A DNA stretch of 64,000 nucleotides from an uncultured Bacilli bacterium (GCA_944332715.1 CALVKN010000068.1:11572-75571), one strand, 5' to 3'; positions 11,969-55,421 are shown, numbered from the stretch's first letter. Numbers and translations: made by a program. Notes: generated by a model from the sequence alone, not told the origin.

Positions 11969-12093
11969 GCCCGGAAGGGCAAGACGGGAAAAACCGCGCA
12001 TGCGGGCGCCGGGGGCCACGCGGCCAGCCGGCCGCGCAGGGGAGGCGTGCCGCCGGGGACAAGCCCGCCGCAGGCCGCGCAGGGGGAGCCGCT

Positions 12094-13296
12094 TTAGTGG
12101 TGGAACAGCCGGAGGCCGGTGAACGCCATGGCGATGCCGTGCCGGTCGCACGCGGCGATGACCTCCTCGTCCCGCACGGAGCCGCCCGGCTCGGCGATGT
12201 AGGACACGCCGCTTCGCGCCGCGCGCTCGATGTTGTCGGCAAACGGGAAGAACGCGTCGCTGCCGAGCGCCACGCCCGTTACCCCGCCGAGCCACGCGCG
12301 CCGCTCGTCCGCCGTCAGCGGTTCCGGGCGCGCGGAGAACAGCGCCTGCCATGCGCCGTCGGCGAGGACCGCTTCCGGCTCCGCGCCGAGATACTGGTCC
12401 ACCGCGTTGTCGCGCGCGGGGCGGCCAATGCCGGGCAAAAACGGGAGCTCCAGCACCTTCGGGTGCCGCCGCAGGTGCCACAGGTCGGCCTTGTCGCCGG
12501 CCAGGCGCGTGCAGTGGATGCGGGACTGCTGCCCGGCGCCCACGCCGATGGCCTGCCCGCCCGCGGCAAAGCACACGGAGTTCGACTGCGTGTAGCGCAG
12601 CGTGACGAGCGCCACGAGCAGGTCGCGCACGGCCGTCTCCGGCAGGTCGCGGCGGGCGGTCACGACGTTTTCGAGGCACGCGGGGTCGATCGGCTGCGCG
12701 CTGCGCGCCTGGGTGAACGTCACGCCGAACACCTCGCGCCGTTCGAGAGAAGGCGGCGCATAGTCCGGGTCGATCTCCAAAATGGTGTAGTTGCCGCCGC
12801 GCTTCTGGGTCAGCAGCGCGAGCGCCTCCGGCGTGTAGCCGGGGGCGATGATGCCGTCGGACACCTCGCGGCGCAAAAAGGCCGCCGTGCTCTCGTCGCA
12901 CACGTCGGACAGCGCGGCAAAGTCGCCAAAGCTGCTCATGCGGTCGGCCCCGCGCGCGCGGATGTAGGCGCAGGCGATGGGCGAAGGCGCGCCGATCCCC
13001 TCGGCGCGCAGCGCGCGCACGTCCGTCTCGTCGAGCGGCAGGCCGAGCGCCGCGCCGGCGGGGCTCACGTGCTTGAACGACGCGGCGGCCGGCAGGCCGC
13101 ACGCGCGCTTCAGCTCCCGCACGAGCTGCCAGGCGTTCAGCGCGTCGAGCAGGTTGATGTAGCCCGGCCGCCCGTTCCGCACGCGGAAGGGTAGCCCGCC
13201 GGGCGCGCTGACGCTCGCCGGGCGCTGATCCGGGTTGCAGCCGTATTTGAGGGGCAGTTCCTCGATGGGGGTCGGGTTGGCGGTTGGTTCCAGCAT
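12094..13296 (-). CDS. purH: Stand-alone AICAR transformylase (PurH C-terminal formyltransferase-domain homolog, no IMP cyclohydrolase domain)
   Basis: About 400 aa, consistent with the AICARFT domain only. It is adjacent to a PurO-like gene. ATG at 13296 with a GGAG Shine-Dalgarno. Confidence 0.75.
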
Positions 13297-13345
13297 GGGG
13301 AGTCCTTTCTCCCGCCCCGATGGGCGGGCTGCCGGGGGGCGGACG

Positions 13346-14068
13346 TCAGGATGCTGCGTCCGGCGCCTCCAGGCGGTTGATCACGTGTTCGGTACGGGCG
13401 CCGGTGGCCAGGTCGATGGCGCAGGCATAGACCGCCACGCGGTTGCGCGCGTCCAGCGCCCGATAGAGCGCCTCGGCCAGCTGGCGCGCCGTCTCCGGCA
13501 GCGCGACGGCGCGCGGCGCGCCCGCAAACGGCGGCAGCGGGTCGCCGTCGCCGGCATAGGTGTGCAGCAGCCGGCCCTCGCCCGGCGCCGGTGCAAAGGC
13601 GGGGAAATACGCCCGCTCGCACGCGCCGCCTGCCGTCCGGCGCAGAATGGCCAGCCGGCACGACACGGCGCCGCCTGCCGTGCGCAGCAGGCCGGCAATG
13701 CGCGGCGTGCAGTGCGGCGCATCCGGCTCGTATTCGCGCGTGTCGAGCGCCGCCTCCAGGCTGGCGCCGCGCGCGAGGCAGGCCGCCACGGTGTCGGTGT
13801 GGTCGCCGTTGGTGACGATCAGGCCGTCCGGCAGGTAGCGCACCGGCGCGTACAGGATCAGCGACGGGTCGGTGACCCGCGCCGGATCGACCGCCTGCGT
13901 GCGCACGCCGTCCGGCACCCGCACGAGGATGCGGTTGCGGCTGTTTTCGCTGCGGCCCATGAGGAAATAGGCGGCGAGTGCGGCTTTTCCGCTCTCACTG
14001 CGGCCGAGCAGCACGCCGCGTCCCGGGTAGGGGTTGGCGCCGAGGAGCGCTTTGAGGGATGGCAGCAT
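13346..14068 (-). CDS. purO: IMP cyclohydrolase, archaeal PurO-like type
   Basis: GRGVLLGRSESGKAALAAYFLMGRSENSRNRIL, TNGDHTDT and CTPRIAGLL resemble the PurO (PF07826) core as I remember it. AGGGAGGAA Shine-Dalgarno upstream of the second ATG (14068). Confidence 0.65.
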   Translation of the reverse strand: MLPSLKALLGANPYPGRGVLLGRSESGKAALAAYFLMGRSENSRNRILVRVPDGVRTQAVDPARVTDPSLILYAPVRYLPDGLIVTNGDHTDTVAACLARGASLEAALDTREYEPDAPHCTPRIAGLLRTAGGAVSCRLAILRRTAGGACERAYFPAFAPAPGEGRLLHTYAGDGDPLPPFAGAPRAVALPETARQLAEALYRALDARNRVAVYACAIDLATGARTEHVINRLEAPDAAS

Positions 14069-17214: not shown

Positions 17215-20200
17215 ATGGAAGGCAAACCGACCGCCGCCCACCGCCCGTTCGGCATGCGGGACAACCTGGCGTATGCCGCGGGCGACTTTGGCTGCAACAT
17301 GAGCTTTGCGCTCAAGGGCACGCTGGTCATCTTCTGGACGCAGTACATGGGCATGGACTCGCTGCTCTACGCCGCGCTGCTGCTCATCGTGCAGGTCTGG
17401 GACGCGATCAACGACCCGCTCATCGGCGCGCTGATCGACGCCGACCGCCGCCGCTACAAGCTCGGCAAGTTCAAGGCGTACATCTTCGCCGGCTCCATCG
17501 GCCTGGTGGTCGCGGGCGCGCTGTGCTTCATCCCGTGGCCGAGCGCGCCGGACATCGCCAAGAACATCCTGTTCGTGGCCGGCTACATCATCTGGGACGC
17601 GTTTTACACCGTGGCCAACGTGCCCTACGGCTCGCTGCTGTCGCTGATCTCGTCCGACCCGGGCGACCGCGCGGCGCTGTCCACCTGGCGCAGCATCGGC
17701 TCGCTGCTGGGCAACATCGCCACGATGGTGCTCATCCCGCTGCTGATCTACGACGCGAACCAGAACATTGTCGGCACGCGCGTGTTCTTTGTGGCGCTGA
17801 TCATGGGCGTGATCGGCTTTGCCGCCTTCCAGTTCATGATCCGCAACACCGAGCAGCGCGTGGAGGCGGAGCCGCCCGCCAAGGCAGAGAAACAGAAGTT
17901 CAACGTGTTCAGGGCCATGGGCAACTTCGTCAAAAACCGCGCCGCCGTCGGCACGACGCTCGCGGCCATGGGCATGTTCATCGGCATGCAGGGCGCGACC
18001 GCGGCCGTGACGGTGCTGTTCCAGTCGTATTTTAAAAACGTGCAGCTCTCCGGCGTCGTGCAGATGTTCGCCATGCTGCCGATGATCGTCTTTGCGCCGT
18101 TCATCCGCCGGTTCTCGGTCAAATACGGCAAAAAGGAGATCTCGGCTGTCGGGTCGCTCTGCAGCGTGGCCGCCTGCGTGCTGCTGCTCGTGCTGCCCAT
18201 CACGCCGAACACCATGGGCATGGTGCTGTATGTGGCGTGCCTGCTGCTGTACAGCCTCGGCGTGGGCGTGTACAGCTGCGTGAGCTGGTCGCTCATGGCC
18301 GATGCGATCGACTACAACCAGTGGCGCTTCGGCATGCGCGAGGAGGGCACGGTGTACTCGCTCCACTCCTTCTTCCGCAAGCTGGCGCAGGGCCTCGGGC
18401 CGTCGCTCGTGCTCGTGATCATGGTTGCGCTCGGCTATGTGGAGGAGAACCAGGGCGCGCAGACGGCCGACGTGGCGCTGAACATGCGCTATCTGGTGGC
18501 CGGGCTGTACCTGTTCAGCGCGCTGATGCAGTTTGTGTCGCTGGCGTTTATCTACAACATCGATAAAAAGACGCTGGCGCGGATGAACGCGGAGCTGCTG
18601 GCGCGCAACGAAGGGGATGGCGGGGCCGCACAGGCGCCGGATCCGGGGTGTGCCTGTGCGCGCGACGTCCGCCCGCTGAACGACGGCTGGACGTTCACCA
18701 AGCCGGGGCAGCCGGCGCAGGCCGTCACGCTGCCGCACACGTGGAACGCCGAGGACGGGCAGGACGGCGGCAACGACTACTATCGCGGCACCTGCCGCTA
18801 CGAGCGGCGCATCGCGCGCAGCGAGCTGCCGGCCGGCGAGCGGGTGTACCTCGAATTGCAGGGGGCGAATTCCTCTGCGGACGTGACGCTCAACGGGACG
18901 CCGCTCATGCACCACGACGGCGGCTACTCCACGTGGCGCGTGGATTTGACCGACGCCCTCCGGGATGACAACGTGCTGACGGTGGACGTGGACAACGGCG
19001 CGAACGAGCGCGTCTACCCGCAGATGGCCGACTTCACGTTCTATGGCGGGCTGTACCGCGAGGTCCGGCTCATCGGCGTGCCGGCCTCGCACTTCGACCT
19101 GGATTACTGCGGCGGCCCCGGCATCGCCGTCACGCCCGCCCTGTCGGGGGACGACGCGGACGTGACCGTGCGCGTGTGGCTCACCGACGCGCGGGAGGGG
19201 CAGCAGCTTCGCTATACGCTGTCCGACGCCGCGGGCGAGGCCGTGGCCACGCAGACCGTGCCGGCCGGGCAGGACGAGGCCGTGCTGCACATTGCGGGCG
19301 TGCGCCGCTGGCACGGGCGCAAGGACCCGTACCTGTACACCGCCCGGGTGGAGCTGCTCGACGGGGAGGCCGTGCTCGACTGCGTCGGCGCCCGCTTCGG
19401 CTGCCGCACGTTTGCAATCGACCCGGACCGCGGCTTCCTGCTCAACGGGGAGGAATACCCGCTGCGCGGCGTTTCCCGCCACCAGGACTGGAAGGGCATT
19501 GGCAACGCGCTGCACGCAGAGCACCACCGCCGCGACGTCGACCTGATCTGCGAGCTGGGCGCGACGACCGTGCGCCTTGCCCACTACCAGCACAGCCAGA
19601 CGTTCTACGACCTGTGCGACGAGCGCGGGCTCGTCGTGTGGGCGGAGATCCCGTACATCTCGCGGCACATGCCCGGCGGGCGCGAAAACACGCTCTCGCA
19701 GATGCGCGAGCTGGTCGTGCAGAACTACAACCACCCGTCCATCGTCGTGTGGGGCCTGTCCAACGAGATCACGATGAACGGCGAGAACGACCCCGACCTG
19801 ATTGAGAACCACCGCCTGCTCAACGACCTGTGCCACGAGCTGGACGCGACGCGCAAGACGACCGTCGCCGTGGTGTCGATGTGCGACATCCACGCGCCGT
19901 ACCTGTCCATTCCGGACGTGGTGTCCTACAACCACTACTTCGGCTGGTACGGCGGCGACACGGACATGAACGGCCCGTGGTTCGACCACTTCCACAGCGA
20001 GCGGCCCGATTTGCCCATCGGCATCAGCGAGTACGGGTGCGAGGCGCTGGATTGGCACACCTCCGACCCGCAGCAGGGCGACTACACCGAGGAATACCAG
20101 GCGTATTACCACGAGGAGCTGATCCGGCAGATCCGCGAGCGCCCGTACCTCTGGGCGACGCACGTGTGGAACATGTTCGACTTTGGCGCCGACGCGCGCA

Positions 20201-20865
20201 ACGAGGGCGGCGAGAACGGGCAGAACCACAAGGGCCTGGTCACGTTCGACCGCGCGTACAAGAAGGACGCGTTCTATGCGTACAAGGCGTGGCTGAGCGA
20301 CGAGCCGTTCGTGCACCTGTGCGGCAAGCGGTATGTGGACCGCGTGGAGGACGTCACGCGCGTGACGGTGTATTCCAACCAGCCCGAGGTGGAGCTGCTC
20401 GTCAACGGCAAGCCGTTTGCCCGCCAGCAGGGCGACCTGTTCTTCTACTTTGACGTGCCAAACGCCGGCCGCACCCGGCTCACCGCCGTCGCGGGCGATT
20501 GCCGCGACGAGAGCCACATCCGCAAGGTCGCCAAGTTCAACGAGGCGTACCGCCTGCGCGAGACCGGCGCCGTGCTCAACTGGTTCGACGTCACCGCGCC
20601 GGAGGGCTACTTCTCCCTGAACGACAAGGTCGGCGCCATCCTCGCCGTGCCGGAGGGCAAGGCCCTGTTCGAGCAGCTCATGGCCAAAATGGGCGAGGGT
20701 AAAAAGGAGTTCGCCGGGTTCCAGCTTAACAAGAGCATGATGCGCATGATGGGCGGGTTTACCGTGCTGCGCCTCACCGGCATGCTCGGCATGGCCAACA
20801 TCCACCTGACCAAGGAGCAGCTGCTTTCGCTCAACGAGCAGCTCAACCGCATCCCCAAGCCGTAA
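17215..20865 (+). CDS. Single ORF fusing a GPH-family (glycoside-pentoside-hexuronide:cation symporter, MFS) transporter to a glycoside hydrolase family 2 enzyme (beta-galactosidase/beta-glucuronidase-like)
   Basis: Residues about 1-480 are a 12-TM GPH transporter (MelB/GusB-like: ...DNLAYAAGDFGCNMSFALKGTLVIFWTQYMG...). Residues about 490-1216 are GH2 (LNDGWTFTKP...TLPHTWNAEDG...NGANER...VRLAHYQHSQTFYDLCDERGLVVWAEIPYIS...WGLSNEI...EYGCEA). No stop between the two domains in this frame. AGGAGG upstream of the ATG at 17215. Confidence 0.8.
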   Translation: MEGKPTAAHRPFGMRDNLAYAAGDFGCNMSFALKGTLVIFWTQYMGMDSLLYAALLLIVQVWDAINDPLIGALIDADRRRYKLGKFKAYIFAGSIGLVVAGALCFIPWPSAPDIAKNILFVAGYIIWDAFYTVANVPYGSLLSLISSDPGDRAALSTWRSIGSLLGNIATMVLIPLLIYDANQNIVGTRVFFVALIMGVIGFAAFQFMIRNTEQRVEAEPPAKAEKQKFNVFRAMGNFVKNRAAVGTTLAAMGMFIGMQGATAAVTVLFQSYFKNVQLSGVVQMFAMLPMIVFAPFIRRFSVKYGKKEISAVGSLCSVAACVLLLVLPITPNTMGMVLYVACLLLYSLGVGVYSCVSWSLMADAIDYNQWRFGMREEGTVYSLHSFFRKLAQGLGPSLVLVIMVALGYVEENQGAQTADVALNMRYLVAGLYLFSALMQFVSLAFIYNIDKKTLARMNAELLARNEGDGGAAQAPDPGCACARDVRPLNDGWTFTKPGQPAQAVTLPHTWNAEDGQDGGNDYYRGTCRYERRIARSELPAGERVYLELQGANSSADVTLNGTPLMHHDGGYSTWRVDLTDALRDDNVLTVDVDNGANERVYPQMADFTFYGGLYREVRLIGVPASHFDLDYCGGPGIAVTPALSGDDADVTVRVWLTDAREGQQLRYTLSDAAGEAVATQTVPAGQDEAVLHIAGVRRWHGRKDPYLYTARVELLDGEAVLDCVGARFGCRTFAIDPDRGFLLNGEEYPLRGVSRHQDWKGIGNALHAEHHRRDVDLICELGATTVRLAHYQHSQTFYDLCDERGLVVWAEIPYISRHMPGGRENTLSQMRELVVQNYNHPSIVVWGLSNEITMNGENDPDLIENHRLLNDLCHELDATRKTTVAVVSMCDIHAPYLSIPDVVSYNHYFGWYGGDTDMNGPWFDHFHSERPDLPIGISEYGCEALDWHTSDPQQGDYTEEYQAYYHEELIRQIRERPYLWATHVWNMFDFGADARNEGGENGQNHKGLVTFDRAYKKDAFYAYKAWLSDEPFVHLCGKRYVDRVEDVTRVTVYSNQPEVELLVNGKPFARQQGDLFFYFDVPNAGRTRLTAVAGDCRDESHIRKVAKFNEAYRLRETGAVLNWFDVTAPEGYFSLNDKVGAILAVPEGKALFEQLMAKMGEGKKEFAGFQLNKSMMRMMGGFTVLRLTGMLGMANIHLTKEQLLSLNEQLNRIPKP

Positions 20866-31026: not shown

Positions 31027-31584
31027 ATGCAGATGACGATCCTTTGGCGCGCGCTGCCGGGCGTGCCCGAGCGGGAGGCGCGCGATGCGTTTGTCCGCCG
31101 TGCACTGGGGCAGGCGCGCTTTTTGCGCCTCGCGCGGGAGCCGGGCGGCAAGCCGTTTCTGCTGCCGGCGGCGGACGACCCGCGCCCGCCGCACCTGAGC
31201 CTGACGCACACGCGCGGACTGATCGCGTGCGCGCTTTTTGACGCGCCCGTGGGCGTGGACGCGGAGCCGGCGGACCGGCAGGTCGCGGCCGCGCTGGCGC
31301 GGCGCATCCTGTCGGAACCGGAGCGCGCGCGCTATGCGGCGCTGCCGGCGGCGGCGCGCGGCGCGTTCCTGCTCGGGCGCTGGGTGGCCAGGGAGGCGCA
31401 CGGCAAGCGCACGGGCGAGGGCATTGCGGGCGGCGGCGCACATCTCGTGGTGACGGACGACGGGCGCGTGCTGGACGCCGGCGGCGCGGTGCTCTCCCGC
31501 GTCAGGACGCTTTCGCTTGCCGGCTGCCTGGTCGCCGTCGCGGGGCCGGACGCCCCGTTTACGCTCTTGACGGAGCAGATCTGA
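31027..31584 (+). CDS. 4'-phosphopantetheinyl transferase, Sfp-type
   Basis: GKPFL motif, SLTHT (FxxSHS-like) motif, W..REA..K (WxxKEA) motif. Confidence 0.7.
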   Translation: MQMTILWRALPGVPEREARDAFVRRALGQARFLRLAREPGGKPFLLPAADDPRPPHLSLTHTRGLIACALFDAPVGVDAEPADRQVAAALARRILSEPERARYAALPAAARGAFLLGRWVAREAHGKRTGEGIAGGGAHLVVTDDGRVLDAGGAVLSRVRTLSLAGCLVAVAGPDAPFTLLTEQI

Positions 31585-35771: not shown

Positions 35772-35786
35772 AACGGGCTGCCCGGC

Positions 35787-35831
35787 AAACGCAGACGAGG
35801 CTCCGCCGGTGGCGGAGCCTCGTCTGCGTTT
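35787..35831. terminator. Bidirectional terminator between convergent copA and the SDR gene
   Basis: Long perfect hairpin AAACGCAGACGAGGCTCCGCC GGTG GCGGAGCCTCGTCTGCGTTT. Confidence 0.75.
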
Positions 35832-35849
35832 GCGTTGCGGGAGCGCGTG

Positions 35850-36650
35850 TTACGCCTTTGCGTACAGCAGCCCGACGAGCCAGTTGAGCGTGCGTACGGG
35901 CAGCAGGCGCGCCAGCAGCAGGAAGAACTGGTATTGCAGCCCGCACGAGTACAGCGCCTTGGGGTGGCGCTTTTGCGCGATGGCCACGATGCGCCGGCCC
36001 AGCACGTCCACAGACATGCCGTTCTGCTCGTCGCGCTCCATGCCGGCGACCGAGCGGGCGAGCGCGGCATACACCTCGCCGCCCGCGGCGCTCTTCTGCC
36101 GCGCGGCGGTGAACCCGGTCTTCACGTCGCCCGGCAGCAGCGCGACGGCGTGCACGCCGAACGGGCGCAGCTCGTTTTGCAGCGCCATCGTGACCGAGGC
36201 GATGGCGGCCTTGGCGGCGGAATAAAACGCCTGGAACGGGATCGGGATCGACCCGGCCACGGAGCCGAGGTTCAATATCAGCCCGGCGCGGGCCTGCCGC
36301 ATGTGCGGCAGCGCGGCGCGGATGCAGTGCAGCGTGCCGAAGAAGTTGACGTCGAACTGGCTGCGCGCTTCCGCGTCGGTCGTGAATTCGATCGCGCCCG
36401 AAATGCCGAACCCGGCGCTGTTGACGAGGATGTCGAGCCGCCCCTCCCGCGCGAGCACGGTTTCCACCGCCGCGCGCGCCTGTGCTTCGTCCGCAATGTC
36501 GGCGGTCAGGTGGGTGTGGCGCGCCGCCGGGAACGGGTGCCGGCTCAGGCCGTAGACGGTGTAGCCGGCGTCGAGAAAGGCGTTGGCGGCGGCCAAACCG
36601 ATGCCGCTGGAGGCGCCGGTGACGAGCACGACGCCCTTACTTTCCGACAT
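35850..36650 (-). CDS. Short-chain dehydrogenase/reductase (classical SDR) with a hydrophobic C-terminal tail; 3-ketodihydrosphingosine-reductase-like architecture
   Basis: TGASSGIGLAAA, NSAG, YSAAK. C-terminal ...KALYSCGLQYQFFLLLARLLPVRTLNWLVGLLYAKA is a hydrophobic tail anchor. 14-nt overlap with the upstream alpha-oxoamine synthase gene. Confidence 0.75.
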   Translation of the reverse strand: MSESKGVVLVTGASSGIGLAAANAFLDAGYTVYGLSRHPFPAARHTHLTADIADEAQARAAVETVLAREGRLDILVNSAGFGISGAIEFTTDAEARSQFDVNFFGTLHCIRAALPHMRQARAGLILNLGSVAGSIPIPFQAFYSAAKAAIASVTMALQNELRPFGVHAVALLPGDVKTGFTAARQKSAAGGEVYAALARSVAGMERDEQNGMSVDVLGRRIVAIAQKRHPKALYSCGLQYQFFLLLARLLPVRTLNWLVGLLYAKA

Positions 36651-37818
36651 GCCGCTTCACCACCCTTTCGATGATGTCCAGCGCCTCGTCGAGCAGCGCC
36701 TCGGTGTGCGTGGCCATGTAGCTCGTGCGGAGCAGGCACTCCGACGGGTGCGTCGCCGGCGGCAACACGGGGTTGACGTACACGCCCTCGTCGTAGAGCT
36801 CCTTGGCGATGGTCAGCGTGGTGACCGCGTCGTGGGTGTAGATCGGGATGATCGGCGTCGTGCTCTCGCGGATGGCGATGCCGCGGCGCTTGAGCCCTTC
36901 GCGCATGTGCCGCGCGAGCGCAGCCAGCCGTTCCGGCAGCTCCGGCTGCTCGCGCAGGATGTGCAGCGCCTCGATGGCCGTGGCGCACGAGGCGGGCGGG
37001 ATCGACGCGCAGAAGATGTACGGCCGTGAGGCGTGGCGCACGTAGTCCACGACGTCCGCGCTTGCGGCCATGTAGCCGCCGATGGACGCGAGCGACTTGG
37101 AGAACGTGCCCATGACGACGTCGACCTGGTCCTCCAGACCGAAATACGACGCGGTGCCGCGCCCGCCCTTGCCGATGACGCCGAGCCCGTGCGCGTCGTC
37201 CACCATGACGCGCGCGCCGTATTGGCGCGCGAGGCGCACGATCTCCGGCAGGTTGCAGATGTCGCCGCCCATGGAGAACACGCCGTCGGTCACGATCAGG
37301 CAGCCGGCCTTGTCCGGCACCTGCTGCAGCCGGCGCTCGAGCTCGTCCATGTCGTTGTGGCGGTAGCGGAGCATCTTGGCGTAGGAGAGCTTGCAGCCGT
37401 CGTAGATGCTCGCGTGGTTTTCCTTGTCGCAGAGCACGTAGTCGCTCTTGCCGCACAGGGCGGAGAGGATGCCGAGGTTCGTCTGGAAGCCGGTGGAGAA
37501 CGTCATCACGGCTTCCCTGCCGAGAAAGTCCGCCAGCTCGCGCTCGAGCTGCGTGTGCAGGCTCAGCGTGCCGTTCAGGAAGCGGGAGCCGGAGCAGCCG
37601 GTCCCGTAGGTTTCGAGCGCGGCGACACCCGCGGCGATCACGCGCGGGTGCACGGTCAGGCCGAGATAGTTGTTGGAGCCGAGCATGATGCGGCGCTTGC
37701 CCTCCATCATGACTTCCGTATCCTGGCGGGATTCCAGCTCGTGAAAATACGGGTAGATGCCCAGGGCGCGCGCCTGTTCGGCGTATTCGTTTTTGCGCTT
37801 GTCAAAGATGTCGTGCAT
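36637..37818 (-). CDS. PLP-dependent alpha-oxoamine synthase family enzyme (Kbl/BioF/serine-palmitoyltransferase-like)
   Basis: LGSNNYLGL, DGVFSMGGD...MVDDAHGLG, and TFSKSLAS with the PLP lysine; about 393 aa. GGGAGGAG Shine-Dalgarno. Confidence 0.8.
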   Translation of the reverse strand: MHDIFDKRKNEYAEQARALGIYPYFHELESRQDTEVMMEGKRRIMLGSNNYLGLTVHPRVIAAGVAALETYGTGCSGSRFLNGTLSLHTQLERELADFLGREAVMTFSTGFQTNLGILSALCGKSDYVLCDKENHASIYDGCKLSYAKMLRYRHNDMDELERRLQQVPDKAGCLIVTDGVFSMGGDICNLPEIVRLARQYGARVMVDDAHGLGVIGKGGRGTASYFGLEDQVDVVMGTFSKSLASIGGYMAASADVVDYVRHASRPYIFCASIPPASCATAIEALHILREQPELPERLAALARHMREGLKRRGIAIRESTTPIIPIYTHDAVTTLTIAKELYDEGVYVNPVLPPATHPSECLLRTSYMATHTEALLDEALDIIERVVKRHVGK

Positions 37819-37881
37819 GGTTCTCCTCCCATCGGTTGCATGGCGCGGCGCGCGGGCCGCGCCGGTCGGTCGGCGGCGCGG

Positions 37882-38763
37882 TTACCGCTCTGGTTCCGGC
37901 ATCGCCTCATAGGCGCGGATGAGCGCCTGCGTCCCCAGCTGGCCGTCGCCGGCGGCCAGCAGCTGTTCGTACATGGCGGCGACGAGGTCGAGCACGGGGA
38001 GCGCGGCGCCGTGGCGCTCCGCCTCCTCGCGGGCGATGCGCAGGTCCTTGACCTGGTGCTTGATGAAGAAGCCGGGGTTCAGGTCGCCGCGCAGGATGCG
38101 CGGCACCATGTTGGAGAGCTGCCACGAGCCGGCGGCGCCGCCGCTGATGCACGAGAGCATGTTCTCCGGGTCGAGCCCGGCCTTCCTGGCATATTGGAGC
38201 GCTTCGCATGCGCCGGCGATCGCGCCGCAGATGGCGATCTGGTTGGCCATCTTCGTGTGCTGGCCGGTGCCGGCCGGGCCGGTGTGGTGGATGGCGCTGC
38301 CCATGCGCTCGAACAGCGGCATGGCCCGCTCGAACGCCTCGCGGTCGCCGCCGGCCATGATGGACAGCGTGGCGTTTTTCGCGCCCACGTCGCCGCCGGA
38401 GACCGGCGCGTCCAGGGCGGAGAGAGAGCGCGCGCGGGCCGCCTCGTAGATGCGCACGGCGAGCGACGGCGCGGTCGTCGCCATGTCGATCAGCAGCGTG
38501 CCGGGCCGCGCGTTTTCCACGATGCCGTCCGGGCCAAAGTAGACCTCCTCCACGTCGGGCGGGAAGCCCACGATCGTGATCACGGCGTCCGCCTCCGCCA
38601 CGCAGCCGGCAACGGCGTCGTGCCAGTGGGCGCCGCGCCCCACGAGCGGCAGCGCCTTTTCCCGCGTGCGGGTGTAGAGGTGCATGTCGTAGCCCGCGTC
38701 CAGCAGGTGCCCCGCCATGGCGCCGCCCATGACGCCGAGGCCGATAAATGCAATGTGCTGCAT
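37882..38763 (-). CDS. NAD(P)-dependent beta-hydroxyacid dehydrogenase (3-hydroxyisobutyrate dehydrogenase / 2-hydroxy-3-oxopropionate reductase family)
   Basis: IAFIGLGVMGGAMA Rossmann motif. HIBADH-like catalytic region (..GTGQHTKMANQI..). First gene of the 3-gene minus-strand operon. Confidence 0.75.
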   Translation of the reverse strand: MQHIAFIGLGVMGGAMAGHLLDAGYDMHLYTRTREKALPLVGRGAHWHDAVAGCVAEADAVITIVGFPPDVEEVYFGPDGIVENARPGTLLIDMATTAPSLAVRIYEAARARSLSALDAPVSGGDVGAKNATLSIMAGGDREAFERAMPLFERMGSAIHHTGPAGTGQHTKMANQIAICGAIAGACEALQYARKAGLDPENMLSCISGGAAGSWQLSNMVPRILRGDLNPGFFIKHQVKDLRIAREEAERHGAALPVLDLVAAMYEQLLAAGDGQLGTQALIRAYEAMPEPER

Positions 38764-38918
38764 AGGTGTCATTCTCCCGTCCGCGCAGATGCGCAAATGA
38801 TGAAAAAGTATATCATATGGCGAAAAGAATCGCAAACAAAAGCGGTCCCGCTCGTTGACATTTTTGCCGGTTGTGAGCATAATAAAATGAACTACTTTGG
38901 AAACGGACAGGGAGGCGG

Positions 38919-43343: not shown

Positions 43344-43850
43344 TCAGAGATTCAGCAGCAGTGTGCCGAAATTCAGGTACGCGGCAAAGGTGAGCCACAG
43401 CAGGTAGGGTAGAAGCAGCAGCGCGGCCGTCCGGTTGCACCGCAGGCTGGCGAGCAGCAGCAGGAGCACCAGCACCCAGAGCAGCAGCAGGTCGACCAGC
43501 GCGGCGAGCAGCAGCCCGGCGGCAAAATACAGCAGCGGCCAGAGGAAGTTGAGCGCAAGCTGCACCGCGTACAGAAACAGCGCGTTGCGGCATGCGCCGT
43601 CCGCTTCGGAAAGCGGCAGCACCCTGCCGTCCGCCCCGCGCGGCAGCAGCAGATAGCTGGAAAGGCCCATGAGCAGGTAGAGGATCGTCCAGACGACCGG
43701 GAACACCCAGCCCGGGGGCGACAGCGGCGGCTGCCGCAGCGCGGCATAGGCGTCCGTCGAGTCGCGGGTCAGCAGCCCGGCGAGCGCGCCCACGGCGAGC
43801 GGGATGGCCAGGCAAAGCAGCAGCGGTTTCCATTGCACATGTCGTTTCAT
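43344..43850 (-). CDS. tspO: TspO/MBR-family (tryptophan-rich sensory protein) membrane protein
   Basis: 5-TM protein with Trp-rich motifs (PPGWVFPVVWTILYLLMG...NFLWPLLYF). ATG at 43850. Confidence 0.8.
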   Translation of the reverse strand: MKRHVQWKPLLLCLAIPLAVGALAGLLTRDSTDAYAALRQPPLSPPGWVFPVVWTILYLLMGLSSYLLLPRGADGRVLPLSEADGACRNALFLYAVQLALNFLWPLLYFAAGLLLAALVDLLLLWVLVLLLLLASLRCNRTAALLLLPYLLWLTFAAYLNFGTLLLNL

Positions 43851-44267: not shown

Positions 44268-45374
44268 TCAGCCGCCGCCCTTCGCCTGGCCGCCCGGAAA
44301 GCCGTCCTCCGGCGCGCCGGGGCGCAGCAGGCCGCCCAGCTGCTGCGCCAGCGCCGCCACGGCCTGCGCCGCGCCGGCGGCCTCGCGCCGCTGCTCGGGC
44401 GGCCAGGCGTCCAGCGGGGCACGCGCGCACTCCTCCAGCAGCTGGGCGAGCGCCGCGCGCAGCGTGCCGCAGCGCGCGCACAGACCCTGCGCCCCCACGC
44501 CCGGCTGCGCGCTGAGCGTCTGCTGCAGCGTGGCATACCGCAGCGCCATGTCCCGGTATCGCCGCCGCGCGGCGCTCAGCTGCCGCCCCTTTTCCCGCGC
44601 CTCCAGCGCGTGGCGCGCCGCCTCCTCCCGCGTACGCTCGGACAGCGACTGCAGCTCCAGCACCTGCCGGCGCAGCGCCGTGTCCGCCGTGCTGCCGAGC
44701 GCGCGGCGCAACTGCGCGTTGGACTCCTCGAGGCGGTGCAGCTTCTGCTCCATGCCGTCGATCTGGTCGGAAGCGGCGCTCTCCAGCGCCTCCAGCTGGG
44801 CGTTGCAGCGCTGCAGCCGCTGCACCTCTGCCCGCAGCTTCTGGTAGGCGGCGTTCACGGAGATCTGCCCCTCGTCCAGGCTGCGGATCAGCTCTGGCGG
44901 GGCGTGGCTCACGATGTACTTGGCCTGGCGGTACTTGTCCCGCCCGCCGATGCCGGCCTGCTGCGCCACGGCCTCTTCCACGCGGCCCACCGGCGCGCCC
45001 GCCGGCCGCTGCGCCCCCGGCAGGTTGGCCGCAGAGTTGCCCGCCGCCACCTGCCGGAGCGCCGCTTCCAGCCGCGCCGCCCAGCGCATGCGCTCGGAAA
45101 ACGTGAAGTCCTTGCGGTTTTCGTTCTCGCTGACCTCCAGCCGGAGCAGGTGCACCGCGTCCCGCACGGGCATGACGCGCACCTCGAGCTGCTTCCAGCC
45201 GAGCGACTTGCACGCGCGCAGCCGCCGTTCCCCTGCGATGAGCAGCAGCTCCGGCGTCACGAGCGGCGGCTGGATGAGCCCGTTTTCCGCGATGTCCGCC
45301 GCCAACTCCGCCACGTCGCCATAGTCCCTGCGGATCCGGTCCGCCAGCCGGATCCGGTCGATGTCCACCAGCAT
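44268..45374 (-). CDS. ParB/Srx-fold (ParB N-terminal nuclease-like domain) protein with a long C-terminal coiled-coil
   Basis: N-terminal MLVDIDRIRLADRIRRDYGDVAELAADIAENGLIQPPLVTPELLLIAGERRLRACKSLGWKQLEVRV with a GERR-like motif. Coiled-coil heptads follow (QLEALESAASDQIDGMEQKLHRLEESNAQLRRAL). Strong promoter TTGTCA-17-TATACT upstream on the minus strand. Confidence 0.7.
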   Translation of the reverse strand: MLVDIDRIRLADRIRRDYGDVAELAADIAENGLIQPPLVTPELLLIAGERRLRACKSLGWKQLEVRVMPVRDAVHLLRLEVSENENRKDFTFSERMRWAARLEAALRQVAAGNSAANLPGAQRPAGAPVGRVEEAVAQQAGIGGRDKYRQAKYIVSHAPPELIRSLDEGQISVNAAYQKLRAEVQRLQRCNAQLEALESAASDQIDGMEQKLHRLEESNAQLRRALGSTADTALRRQVLELQSLSERTREEAARHALEAREKGRQLSAARRRYRDMALRYATLQQTLSAQPGVGAQGLCARCGTLRAALAQLLEECARAPLDAWPPEQRREAAGAAQAVAALAQQLGGLLRPGAPEDGFPGGQAKGGG

Positions 45375-45569
45375 TTCGCGTCTGTCCCCTCTCTTATGGA
45401 TTTCAGAATGCAAACATTTGTTCGTATAAGGCAGTATAACATGGTATACTGCAAATGACAACCGGCCCGGCCGGTTTTTTCACGGGTTTTTTGCGCGGGT
45501 GCCGGCCCGCGCGCCAAGTGGCGGAAATCGGCCGGCCGGCATGGACACGAGCACGGAAAGGGGAGCAAC

Positions 45570-46748
45570 ATGGCACGACGGGAGAGGATACGCATCGGCG
45601 CGGTGGACGCCACGGCGCTGTATACGGAGCGGGAACGGGCGCTGGACGAGCGGCTGCGGCGAGCCGTGCGGAACCGGGTGCGGTACGAGCGGGCGCGGCG
45701 GGTGGTGCGCGCGTGCGCTGCCGGGCGGCGCGGGGAGCGGCAGGCGCTCGCGCAGCTGGAGCGCATCTATGGGTATGCGGTATTCCTGCTGCCGGAGGAG
45801 GACGAGCTTGCCGCCGCCATTGCCGCCTGCCGGGCGGAGGCCGCCGCGCAGCGGCGGGCGCTGCGCGCGGCGCTCCTGGCGCACGCCGGGCCGCGCAGCC
45901 TTGCGCCGGAGCGGGCGCGCGCAGGGGACGGCGCGTCGCTGCCCGCGTCGGCGCTGACGCGGCAGCTCGGGCTGCGGCCGGGCGCGCGCACCGGCGCGCT
46001 GCTCCTCGTGCGGGCGGCGCGGCCGGAGGCGCTTTTCAGCCTGGCGCGGCACGGGTTCACGGTGGGCGGGGCGCGCTATGTGGCGCTGGCCGCCGCGCCC
46101 GCGCCGGACGCGCTGCTGTTTCTGCGCGAGACGCTGTTCCGGCGGCATGAAAAGGCGCTGCTGGGCGGGCTGACCCGTGCGCGCATCCGTGCGCTGGCCG
46201 GCCGCCGGGCGGACCCGCGCGCACCGCTGCAGGCCTGCGCGGAGGCGACGGAACCGTGGGCGGCGTTCGACATCGGGCGCGCGATCGTGGTGGACGACGT
46301 GCCGCTGCCCGCGGGCGGCGCGGCGCCGTTCGGGCTCGTGCTGCCGCAGGTTTCGGGCGGGGCGGCGGTGCACGTGCGGCTGCCGTGGATCGAGGGGCGG
46401 CTGGAGCCGTTCCCGTTCGACGCGTTCCTCCGGGCGCGCGGCCAGGCCGGCCGCACGGTGCGCGACATCTACGGCAAGACGCACGACGTGCTCGCGGAGG
46501 GCGTACAGGTCATCTTTACGCGCAGCCAGTTCCGGCTCTGGCGGTGCTATGCGTGCTGGGCGGAATACCGCCTGTATTTTCGCGCGTACGGCTGCGAGGC
46601 GGAGCGCCGCGCCGCGCCGGCGGGCGCGTGCGCGGCGGGCGGGGCGGACGCGCGCGCCTTTTGCGAGCGGCTGTTTGGCGCCCGGCGTGCCCGGCGGCGG
46701 GCGGGACGGCCCGGCGCGGGCGGCGCGGCGCAAAGCGACGGGGAATGA
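45570..46748 (+). CDS. Hypothetical protein, no recognisable domain, first gene of the plus-strand NlpC/P60-holin cluster
   Basis: 392-codon ORF with AAAGGGGAG at -7 to -13, co-oriented and nearly contiguous with the downstream NlpC/P60 gene. Arg/Ala-rich, as expected at this GC content. Real coding status rests on the RBS and operon context only. Confidence 0.5.
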   Translation: MARRERIRIGAVDATALYTERERALDERLRRAVRNRVRYERARRVVRACAAGRRGERQALAQLERIYGYAVFLLPEEDELAAAIAACRAEAAAQRRALRAALLAHAGPRSLAPERARAGDGASLPASALTRQLGLRPGARTGALLLVRAARPEALFSLARHGFTVGGARYVALAAAPAPDALLFLRETLFRRHEKALLGGLTRARIRALAGRRADPRAPLQACAEATEPWAAFDIGRAIVVDDVPLPAGGAAPFGLVLPQVSGGAAVHVRLPWIEGRLEPFPFDAFLRARGQAGRTVRDIYGKTHDVLAEGVQVIFTRSQFRLWRCYACWAEYRLYFRAYGCEAERRAAPAGACAAGGADARAFCERLFGARRARRRAGRPGAGGAAQSDGE

Positions 46749-46775
46749 GGAGGAAAGGGGAATGAGGAGGAAACC

Positions 46776-47510
46776 ATGGTGGAATATACGAGATTGCTCA
46801 AACATTTGATGAAAGGCGACGACGTGCGGGCGGTCAAGGACCGGCTCGTGGCGCTCGGCTATCTGCATGCGGCGACGCACGACACGTTCGGGGACGACAC
46901 GCTGGAGGCGGTGCGGTCGTTCCAGCGCGCCGCGGGGCTCACGGTGGACGGCGTCGTGGGCCCGCTCACGTGGGCGGCGCTGTTTGCCGACGGCGCGCCG
47001 GAGCCGCCCGCGCCTGCCACGCCGTCGGATCTGGCGGAGCGGATGTGCGCGCTTGCCCAGCAGTACATCGGCCATCCGTATGTGTGGGCCGCGTCGGGGC
47101 AGGAGAACCCGACCGACGGCGACATCCGCGGCCTGGACAAGACGGAGGCGGACGCGGAGCGCTCCATCCGCTTTTGCGACGCGCTTCGGCGCGGAGGCGT
47201 GACGCAGATGCGCTGCTTCGACTGCTCGGGGTTCGTGTCGTTCCTGCTGCGCGAGGTGGGCGCGTGGGACGGGCGGCGCGACTGCGACGGGCTGTGGGGC
47301 TATTGCACGCCGCTGGCGCGGAGCGAGCTGATCGCGGGGGATTTCGTGCTGCGCGGGAGCGACGGCGACAAGACGCACATCGGCCTGTATGTGGGCGGCG
47401 GCTGGGTGGTGCACGCCAAGGGGCGCGACGACGGCGTGGTGAAGGAACCGGTGCAGCAGAGCGCGGGGTACTGGAAGTACTTTGGGCGTTGCCGCCTGCT
47501 GTACCCGTGA
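46776..47510 (+). CDS. Cell-wall hydrolase: N-terminal peptidoglycan-binding domain (PG_binding_1) plus C-terminal NlpC/P60 (C40) peptidase; endolysin-like
   Basis: VKDRLVALGYL...TLEAVRSFQRAAGLTVDGVVGPLTWAAL is a PG_binding_1 domain. CFDCSGFVSFLL ... H(IGLYVGGGWVVHA) is the Cys-His NlpC/P60 core. GGAGGAAACC Shine-Dalgarno. Confidence 0.8.
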   Translation: MVEYTRLLKHLMKGDDVRAVKDRLVALGYLHAATHDTFGDDTLEAVRSFQRAAGLTVDGVVGPLTWAALFADGAPEPPAPATPSDLAERMCALAQQYIGHPYVWAASGQENPTDGDIRGLDKTEADAERSIRFCDALRRGGVTQMRCFDCSGFVSFLLREVGAWDGRRDCDGLWGYCTPLARSELIAGDFVLRGSDGDKTHIGLYVGGGWVVHAKGRDDGVVKEPVQQSAGYWKYFGRCRLLYP

Positions 47511-54239: not shown

Positions 54240-54383
54240 CCCCGGCGCGGCGGATGGATTAGGGGCCCCGGCCTGTGGCGGGGCCCTTGGCACGCCGGCA
54301 ACCATGAAATTTCGATGAAGGTTTAAAAAAAGCCGGTCTGGCGGATTGAAAAGCGGCATGCGGCAATGGTATACTGGTGCAGT

Positions 54384-55421
54384 ATGAAGAAACAGGCATG
54401 GAAACGCATCCTGGTGGTGCTGCTGACGCTGGCGGTGCTCGTGGGATTTGTGGTGTTTGATAAAGACGTGGGCAACATCGCGGAGGTGCTGCAGTCCGTT
54501 TCGCCGCCCTGGCTGATCGGCGCGCTGCTGTGCGCCCTGTTGTACTTTTTGGGCGATACGCTCATGTATCAGATTGCCTGCCGCGACATGCAGATCCCGC
54601 AGCCGCTGCACGAGGCGCTCATCACCACCATGATCGGCTTTTTTTATAGCGCGCTGACGCCGCTCTCGTCGGGCGGACAACCCTTCCAGGTGCTGCAGAT
54701 GCGTGGCCGCGGCATCAACGTCGGCACGGCGACCTCCGTGCTGATGGTCAAGTTCATGGCCTGGCACATCGCACTCTCCTGTGTGGGATTGATGGGCGCG
54801 GTGTTCTGCGGCGGCACGCTGCTGCAGGAGAGCACGACGATGTTTGTGCTGTTCTGCATCGGCTTTTTACTGCACCTGTTCTGCGCCGGGACGGGGCTGC
54901 TGCTCATGGTGCGGCCGCAGCTGGTGTATCGCGCCGGGCGCGCGGTGGTGGGTTTCGTCGGGCGCGTGGCGTGCCGGCGCCGGCCTGACCGGCTCGAGCG
55001 GATGTACGCGGCTTGGGACCGGTTCATCGGCGAGTACAAGCAGGCCGTCGCATATTCGCTACAGCACCGGGCCGGCATGGTGCAGATCGTGCTCGTGGCG
55101 TTTGTCGAGGTCACGGCCTACCTGTCGGTCACGTACTGCGTGTACCGCGGCCTGGGCTTTTCCGAGGTCACCTACCCGACGATGACGCTGCTGCAGGGCA
55201 TGCTGTCCATCGGCGTGGCGTTTGTGCCGCTGCCGGGCGCGTCGATCGCCACGGAGGGCGGGTTCTATGCGCTGTTTACCACCTACTTTGGCGATTTCCG
55301 CCTGGCCGGCATGCTGGTGTGGCGGTTTCTGACGTATTATCTCGTCATTTTGCTGGGGCTCGTCGCCGTGCTCGTGGACGGCTTCCGTGCCGACCGGCGC
55401 GTGGGCGCCCGGGAGGGCTGA
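54384..55421 (+). CDS. Lysylphosphatidylglycerol-synthase-TM-domain-like (UPF0104/YbhN-type, flippase-like) integral membrane protein
   Basis: About 8 TM segments with the typical GD..MY and proline-rich loop pattern of LPG_synthase_TM family proteins. The start is uncertain (54366 or 54384). Candidate promoter TTGAAA-18-TGGTATACT ending a few nt before the ATG. Confidence 0.65.
   Translation: MKKQAWKRILVVLLTLAVLVGFVVFDKDVGNIAEVLQSVSPPWLIGALLCALLYFLGDTLMYQIACRDMQIPQPLHEALITTMIGFFYSALTPLSSGGQPFQVLQMRGRGINVGTATSVLMVKFMAWHIALSCVGLMGAVFCGGTLLQESTTMFVLFCIGFLLHLFCAGTGLLLMVRPQLVYRAGRAVVGFVGRVACRRRPDRLERMYAAWDRFIGEYKQAVAYSLQHRAGMVQIVLVAFVEVTAYLSVTYCVYRGLGFSEVTYPTMTLLQGMLSIGVAFVPLPGASIATEGGFYALFTTYFGDFRLAGMLVWRFLTYYLVILLGLVAVLVDGFRADRRVGAREG

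Follow-up and report, generated by a model that had tools for sequence, protein, structure and literature searches.

A candidate two-gene module for sphingoid-base synthesis in uncultured gut Clostridia: a serine palmitoyltransferase-like synthase coupled to a KdsR-like reductase

Organization of the locus

We analysed a stretch of 64,000 nucleotides (nt) from an uncultured Bacilli bacterium (GCA_944332715.1 CALVKN010000068.1:11572-75571), hereafter the window, in which three consecutive minus-strand genes encode a HIBADH-family dehydrogenase, a pyridoxal 5'-phosphate (PLP)-dependent alpha-oxoamine synthase and a classical short-chain dehydrogenase/reductase (SDR). The last two genes are the subject of this report, as a candidate module for a sphinganine-type long-chain base. 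Their positions, together with that of the HIBADH-family gene, agree between the initial annotation of the window, the open reading frames (ORFs) and the public gene calls; moreover, public contigs carrying an identical synthase show the same three calls. The features of the locus, in order of coordinates, are the following.

35785-35833, between the convergent SDR and copA genes: perfect 23-bp inverted repeat (hairpin), recognised in the sequence
35850-36650, minus strand: classical SDR, 266 amino acids (aa), Pfam adh_short
36637-36650, minus strand: overlap of the synthase stop and the SDR start, 14 nt, ATGTCGGAAAGTAA
36637-37818, minus strand: PLP-dependent alpha-oxoamine synthase, 393 aa, Pfam Aminotran_1_2
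37819-37881, minus strand: spacer between the HIBADH-family gene and the synthase, 63 nt, holding GGGAGGAG, the ribosome-binding site of the synthase
37882-38763, minus strand: HIBADH-family gene, 293 aa, Pfam NAD_binding_2 and NAD_binding_11
38835-38807, minus strand: promoter-like site TTGCGA-17-TG-TATACT (extended TG), from a consensus scan and the sequence

The window has about 68% G+C and, since it encodes SleB and YpeB, its host is a spore-forming Firmicute; the nearest genomes are metagenome-assembled genomes (MAGs) of uncultured Clostridia, such as UMGS251 and Candidatus Aphodomorpha. The codon-position G+C content of the three genes equals that of the rest of the window (0.89-0.93 at third positions), and they are therefore native to this genome.

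The 14-nt overlap of the synthase and the SDR, already reported in the initial annotation, is present in the sequence and suggests translational coupling, and a Shine-Dalgarno-like ribosome-binding site, GGGTGGTGA, lies upstream of the SDR start. The promoter-like site precedes the HIBADH start by about 45 nt, within the intergenic stretch shared with the divergent glnS, and is probably where the three-gene transcript begins in the window organism. Within the 63-nt spacer, neither a promoter-like site (consensus scan) nor significant RNA structure (fold z = 0.32) was found. At the other end, the hairpin folds at -62.9 kcal/mol on the minus strand (z = -10.7) and at -66.1 kcal/mol on the plus strand (z = -9.7), has no U-tract, and is likely a bidirectional transcript end. 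Given the upstream promoter-like site, the promoter-less spacer and the downstream hairpin, the HIBADH-family gene, the synthase and the SDR probably form a single transcript in the window organism. A longer HIBADH reading frame of 332 aa would begin with an ATG at 38880 (extension 38764-38880, minus strand); this form is probably untranslated, because the promoter-like site lies inside the extension and public calls use 38763.

Synthase, reductase and the conservation of their pairing

The synthase and the SDR were searched against the 18950 profile models of NCBIfam, with the curated equivalog cut-offs applied. The best model for the synthase was NF047600 (SPT-CFB, the Bacteroidota-type serine palmitoyltransferase, SPT), with 537.5 bits, and the same model was best for its ten closest 50%-cluster representatives. 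Other models gave 427.6 bits (SPT-BetaP, NF047599), 353.5 (NF047603), 395.3 (Kbl), 388.2 (BioF) and 213 (CqsA type). When sequences of the PDB were ranked, the SPT of Sphingobacterium multivorum (SmSPT; 3a2b/8guh) reached 424.7 bits, sphingomonad SPTs about 314 and E. coli KBL 278, and SulA (7u7h, 240.6 bits), CapB (28eh, 231.5) and BioF (200) ranked lower. The alignment with SmSPT is gapless over 378 residues, with 49.7% identity; identity to the S. paucimobilis SPT is 43%, to E. coli Kbl 39% and to BioF 31%, and the two characterised SPTs are just 37.5% identical to each other.

The active site was compared at 21 positions, which comprise the SmSPT residues named in PMC10196870 and their immediate neighbours. 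Twenty of these are identical, the sole change being Met271 to Ile in SmSPT numbering; among the residues kept, in the same numbering, are Asn52, Gly80, Ser81, Phe114, His138, Ser185, Asp210, Ala212, His213, Thr241, Ser243, Lys244, Phe272, Ala274 and Arg367, as well as Tyr27 and Phe83 of the acyl wall. The catalytic set is complete, with K241, H135, D207, H210 and R364 of the synthase corresponding to K244, H138, D210, H213 and R367 of SmSPT, and K241 is proposed to be the lysine that forms the Schiff base with PLP. N49, S78, F80 and A271 of the synthase also match the SmSPT active site, Ala271 being the SPT state at the position where SulA has K281. Furthermore, the motifs GSRFLNGT, TFSKS, STGF and F-x-A-S agree with those of SPTs, unlike the corresponding segments of Kbl and BioF, which read ASVRFICGT and GSGHVSGY at the first site, LGKA and FGKG at the FSKS site, and Asn and Thr at the Ala271 site, respectively. 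The AlphaFold2 (AF2) model of the synthase (predicted local distance difference test, pLDDT, 95.5) lies at a root-mean-square deviation of 1.0 Å from both 8guh and 3a2b, and its five top Foldseek matches are all SPTs.

A phylogenetic placement had been proposed as a check in the initial annotation. In a neighbour-joining tree of 88 sequences, including E. coli Kbl, BioF and two SPTs, the clostridial synthases form a clade with 100% bootstrap, to which a sequence designated P0121 is sister (67%). Both SPTs belong to the group in which this clade falls, and Kbl lies outside it, but the deep nodes have only 0-29% bootstrap, so that the tree is compatible with SPT membership of the synthase without proving it.

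The SDR carries the motifs TGASSGIG and NSAG (a variant of NNAG) and the catalytic residues S130, Y143 and K147. In an alignment of its homologues, designated A1, the residues G12, G16, G18, A79, G80, S130, Y143 and K147 are invariant, and N78 is nearly so, the window SDR having Ser at this position. Also invariant in this alignment is Arg37, which follows strand beta-2. By the classical SDR cofactor rules, an arginine at this point indicates NADP(H), and from Arg37 the enzyme is predicted to use NADPH. Among all NCBIfam models, the best for the SDR was NF049977 (KdsR, 3-ketodihydrosphingosine reductase), with 220.9 bits and an end-to-end alignment. The KdsR model was best for nine of nine SDRs tested, covering positions 3-265/267 of its 267; besides the window SDR, these are the synthase partners at seven diverged clostridial loci (204-264 bits) and the one at the P0121 locus, L084 (268.5 bits, with a margin of 37 bits). 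By sequence, the SDR is thus closest to the bacterial 3-ketodihydrosphingosine reductase KdsR.

One feature of the SDR had to be reinterpreted. The initial annotation had described it as tail-anchored, on account of a long hydrophobic C-terminus. This segment, whose pattern ...Y.F..L...LP.R..NW.VG.LYA is kept in homologues, has a maximal 19-residue Kyte-Doolittle hydropathy of 1.49 and contains two Arg and one Pro. In the AF2 model (pLDDT 87.9), helices 238-249 and 252-263 are packed on the catalytic domain, and the full chain reaches its top TM-scores (0.84-0.87) with human 17beta-HSD1, an enzyme that depends on NADPH and reduces a lipophilic ketone. A tail anchor was rejected on the hydropathy, the packed amphipathic helices of the model and the fold match; because the helices pack on the domain as in 17beta-HSD1, they most likely constitute a hydrophobic substrate lid or a peripheral membrane-binding surface.

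We scanned one genome per species and found 517 stretches encoding relatives. The best 80 of these have 69-90% identity and come without exception from uncultured Clostridia that live in the guts of humans, chickens and ruminants and bear labels such as Christensenellaceae/Christensenellales and Oscillospiraceae. In 77 of these 80 loci the next gene downstream of the synthase is the SDR, and the remaining three are contig ends (77/77 testable loci); the pairing is far beyond chance, and the operon conservation in relatives that the initial annotation had named as a check is borne out for these two genes. Counted from longest-ORF starts, which may overstate overlaps, 54 of 63 scored related loci have an SDR whose start either overlaps the stop of the synthase or is at most 6 nt away from it. 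Across loci, the identity of the SDR drops to 42% while that of the synthase drops to 69%, and the flanking genes change completely. Indeed, when all ORFs within 7 kb of the synthase were clustered across the 80 loci, no third conserved gene was found, the clusters consisting only of antisense shadows and sporadic neighbours, such as a xylose-isomerase-like TIM barrel (11 loci), GalE (11 loci) and a lipid kinase (6 loci). No tdh, bio or cysteate synthase genes recur near the pair in these loci. The nearest relative outside the clade, P0121 (L084, 6001-8462), is 55% identical to the synthase and has an overlapping KdsR-like SDR in a Firmicute-like context.

Some carriers of the pair are abundant in public data. 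The exact sequence of the synthase orthologue of Clostridium sp. CAG:138 (P0408, L054) is present on at least 1000 public contigs and that of Candidatus Faecousia (P0429, L073) on 553, and the carriers of these two sequences are very prevalent gut organisms. OY762275.1 and OY762936.1 are complete MAG chromosomes with the pair. In public records the genes bear unspecific names ("aminotransferase class I/II", "8-amino-7-oxononanoate synthase" or "SDR family oxidoreductase"), and for this reason annotation-based metagenomic surveys would miss the pair.

Proposed pathway and competing explanations

The family models, the compared residues, the modelled structures and the conserved gene pairing all fit the core of the initial annotation, an SPT-like synthase with a KDSR-like SDR. 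On this basis we favour, with fair but not high confidence, a two-gene module of spt-like and kdsR-like genes that makes a sphinganine-type long-chain base. In such a pathway, the synthase would join L-serine and a long-chain acyl thioester in a decarboxylative condensation that yields 3-ketodihydrosphingosine; the acyl donor in a Firmicute would probably be acyl-ACP (acyl carrier protein), as was shown for SulA (PMC9304779). In the second step, the SDR would use NADPH to convert the 3-keto group, yielding a 2-amino-1,3-diol, that is, a sphinganine-type base, and this reduction would precede any acylation, which is the Bacteroides order. In the window organism, the pair would probably be transcribed from the promoter of the unrelated HIBADH-family gene upstream. 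The gene structure, the family affinities, the kept active-site residues, the fold and the conservation of the pair are observed here; the substrates, chain length, cofactor and product are inferred.

Several observations weigh against this pathway. The synthase scores below every SPT cut-off (537.5 vs 640 bits for NF047600, 427.6 vs 500 for NF047599 and 353.5 vs 670 for NF047603), and the SDR reaches 220.9 bits against a KdsR cut-off of 400, with orthologues at 204-268. Because both enzymes are below the curated cut-offs, neither is a certified family member; by sequence and model, the synthase is closest to the bacterial serine palmitoyltransferase type, below certified membership. For the window SDR, KdsR stands only 11 bits above the generic model PRK06179, the margins of orthologues being 3-50 bits, and since many SDRs promiscuously reduce 3-keto long-chain bases (PMC11211663), the family assignment of the SDR alone is weak evidence. 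To this are added the low bootstrap values in the deep placement of the synthase clade and the finding of no ceramide synthase, ACP or acyl-activating gene linked to the pair. Moreover, the carriers found in cluster look-ups are all uncultured MAGs.

Some of these points would also suit a different use of the same two-step chemistry, with a non-serine amino acid such as Ala, Gly or Thr and/or short or medium acyl chains as substrates; the product would then be no sphingoid base but either a 1-deoxy base or a small amino alcohol with a metabolic or signalling role. We consider this fairly unlikely. Both enzymes are under their equivalog cut-offs, the clade is distinct and fully supported above poorly supported deep nodes, no linked ceramide synthase was found, a small GNAT follows the pair in the sister locus L084, and SPTs can also use Ala and Gly, though inefficiently (PMC10196870). 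Nevertheless, the contacts to the serine carboxylate and hydroxyl are all kept (N49, G77, S78, H135, S240, K241 and R364), the acyl-wall residues Y24 and F80 are identical to those of SmSPT, the model backbone is within 1.0 Å of SmSPT, and the CqsA-type autoinducer synthase model gives 213 bits against a cut-off of 428; all of this argues against such other substrates.

A housekeeping enzyme, either Kbl of threonine catabolism or BioF of biotin synthesis, with the SDR as an unrelated neighbour, is very improbable. The Kbl and BioF models do give 395 and 388 bits, the latter near its cut-off (388 of 426), and one public source labels a relative as 8-amino-7-oxononanoate synthase. However, the synthase is below the cut-offs of these families as well (395.3 vs 460 and 330 vs 493 bits for Kbl; 388.2 vs 426.45 for BioF), with scores about 140-150 bits under that of the SPT model; its motifs differ at GSRFLNGT, FSKS and Ala271; tdh and bio genes do not recur among the 80 loci; and the SDR, which is invariably coupled, would have no role. 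The SDR itself is a classical one with an NADPH-type Arg37, and no threonine dehydrogenase. The initial annotation had named, as what would refute its reading, a synthase clustering firmly in Kbl together with an SDR of threonine dehydrogenase type, and this was not the case. Scarcely credible, finally, is a sulfonolipid (capnine) pathway of cysteate acyltransferase and 3-ketocapnine reductase, which follows the same enzyme logic, is known in gut Bacteroidota (PMC9304779, PMC11211663) and has kcr homologues counted in Firmicutes by a loose survey (PMC11211663), since the diagnostic SulA K281 is an alanine in the synthase, SulA and CapB give 241 and 231 bits vs 425 for SPT, and no cysteate synthase gene recurs near the pair.

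Returning to the sphinganine-type module, its generalization is a more tentative proposal. It is possible, with a confidence slightly short of balanced, that many uncultured gut Clostridia make free sphingoid bases or their phosphates from just two genes, in a self-contained spt-kdsR operon to which no ceramide synthase is linked. The carriers that we propose, with the same reserve, are MAGs of Christensenellales and Oscillospiraceae type, among them Clostridium sp. CAG:138 and Candidatus Faecousia. Gut bacterial sphingolipids enter the sphingolipid metabolism of the host and modulate immunity. If the proposal is true, no sphingoid-lipid pathway would have preceded this one in monoderm, spore-forming Firmicutes, the gut would have a second large source of bacterial sphingoid bases besides Bacteroidota, and a large, prevalent part of the Clostridia would join the list of producers.

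Neighbouring genes and comparison with known systems

The neighbouring genes considered as possible partners of the pair are the following.

31027-31584, plus strand: phosphopantetheinyl transferase (PPTase), PF01648, 185 aa, between yhbY and a DUF4349 gene
L017, L023, L037 and L042, about 12010-12970: lipid kinase downstream of the pair
L074, 8627-9496, and L077, 8936-9844: lipid kinase upstream of the pair

The initial annotation had included the HIBADH-family gene in the pathway unit. Of the 80 loci, just the four nearest relatives (L002-L005) carry this gene, and its absence from the other 76 rules it out as a member of the module. It reaches no equivalog cut-off, its best NCBIfam model being TIGR01505 (tartronate semialdehyde reductase; 272.5 bits vs a cut-off of 340.75), and it is a lineage-specific upstream neighbour, probably co-transcribed in the window organism. 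The PPTase, which had been mentioned as lying close to the pair, does exist as a PF01648 protein; its link to the pair was dropped, because no homologue occurs near the pair in any other locus, and we regard it as unrelated.

A YegS/BmrU-family lipid kinase (DAGK_cat and YegS_C) adjoins the pair in six of the 80 species, in two arrangements. It could be a long-chain-base kinase, which would fit the known theme of bacterial dihydrosphingosine kinases (PMC10191378), although we take this as a lead only. Among more distant relatives, acyltransferases accompany the synthase. In L084, a small GNAT of 151 aa follows the SDR, the synthase P0123 (52% identical; L085, 1661-4244) precedes a GNAT of 390 aa, and still other distant relatives (P0131, P0129, P0135 and P0150) are fusion proteins with a GNAT or FemAB-like acyltransferase domain. 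These partners are candidate N-acylation (ceramide-synthase-like) enzymes, in an arrangement that resembles those of spt with ceramide synthase; like the lipid kinase, they are counted in favour of the proposed pathway. In the ten multidomain relatives scanned, no fusion of alpha-oxoamine synthase and SDR was seen, the accessory domains being GNAT/FemAB-like, STAS, PilZ, DUF1571 and PKS-type. A tblastn search with the two GNATs of L085 and L084 as queries found no ceramide-synthase-like gene in the window or within 10 kb in the clostridial loci, which is a weak negative.

The sole other lipid-related gene seen in the window encodes an LPG_synthase_TM (PF03706) membrane protein of 351 aa (54366-55421, plus strand), about 16 kb from the pair. 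Some further genes of the window deserve mention in their own right. A plus-strand gene at 17215-20865 encodes 1216 aa in an unusual fused architecture, joining MFS_1/MFS_2 transporter domains to a complete GH2 glycosidase (Glyco_hydro_2_N2, GH2, GH2_C and DUF4982). At 12094-14068 (minus strand), the last purine steps are split between adjacent genes for AICARFT_IMPCHas (400 aa) and IMP_cyclohyd (PF07826, 240 aa), which adjoin a complete his operon. Among housekeeping genes, the minus strand at 43344-43850 encodes a 168-aa homologue of the tryptophan-rich sensory protein TspO/MBR. The region 44268-47510 holds a minus-strand ParB_N protein (368 aa) beside a 392-aa protein without a Pfam match (45570-46748) and, in the same neighbourhood, an NlpC/P60 and PG_binding_1 hydrolase (46776-47510).

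Among known systems, the synthase is most like the Bacteroidota SPT (SmSPT 3A2B/8GUH; B. thetaiotaomicron BT_0870; NF047600), sharing with it a soluble chain of about 390 aa with no membrane segment, a gapless alignment at 49.7% identity, the PLP/serine-binding and acyl-wall residues, the SPT motifs and a backbone within 1.0 Å. It differs in its sub-cut-off score (537.5 vs 640), in its host, a monoderm, spore-forming Clostridium, and in the coupling of its gene to that of the reductase, whereas BT_0870 and BT_0972 occupy distant loci, to judge from their locus tags. The SDR shares with KdsR (BT_0972 of B. thetaiotaomicron, PMC9278070; NF049977) a classical SDR chain of about 265 aa, the Ser-Tyr-Lys triad and the NADPH-type Arg. 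Moreover, its alignment to the family model spans the full length, C-terminal helices included, with a score of 220.9 bits vs a cut-off of 400. The B. thetaiotaomicron SPT and BT_0972 have been co-expressed in E. coli (PMC9278070).

In Caulobacter, ceramide synthesis follows the order Spt, bCerS and then CerR. The clostridial loci would share the first step, and distant synthase relatives lie beside or are fused with GNATs (L085, P0131 and P0129); they differ in that no bCerS-like gene was found within 10 kb and in that the reductase is a classical SDR of the Bacteroides type. From this type of reductase, reduction of the free base would come before any acylation, as in Bacteroides (PMC9278070). 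With eukaryotic KDSR (FVT1/Tsc10), the SDR would share the reaction and the SDR superfamily, but it has no transmembrane anchor, having instead two amphipathic helices packed as in 17beta-HSD1. The sulfonolipid enzymes SulA/CapB and CapC/KCR likewise combine an alpha-oxoamine synthase and an SDR acting on a long-chain substrate; the window synthase is much less similar to SulA and CapB than to SPT and has Ala271 in place of the cysteate-specific lysine.

Both enzyme families, like the chemistry itself, have been described in Bacteroidota (PMC9278070, PMC10196870). According to a 2023 review, the detection of sphingolipids has been largely in Bacteroidota and some alpha-Proteobacteria (PMC10191378), and a survey counted loose reductase homologues in Firmicutes without making a specific claim (PMC11211663); we found no published report of SPT, KDSR or sphingolipids in Clostridia/Firmicutes in the literature. 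In brief, the enzyme families are familiar, and what is new here is the phylum-level setting and the tightly coupled operon in which the two genes occur, with no ceramide synthase found linked to them.

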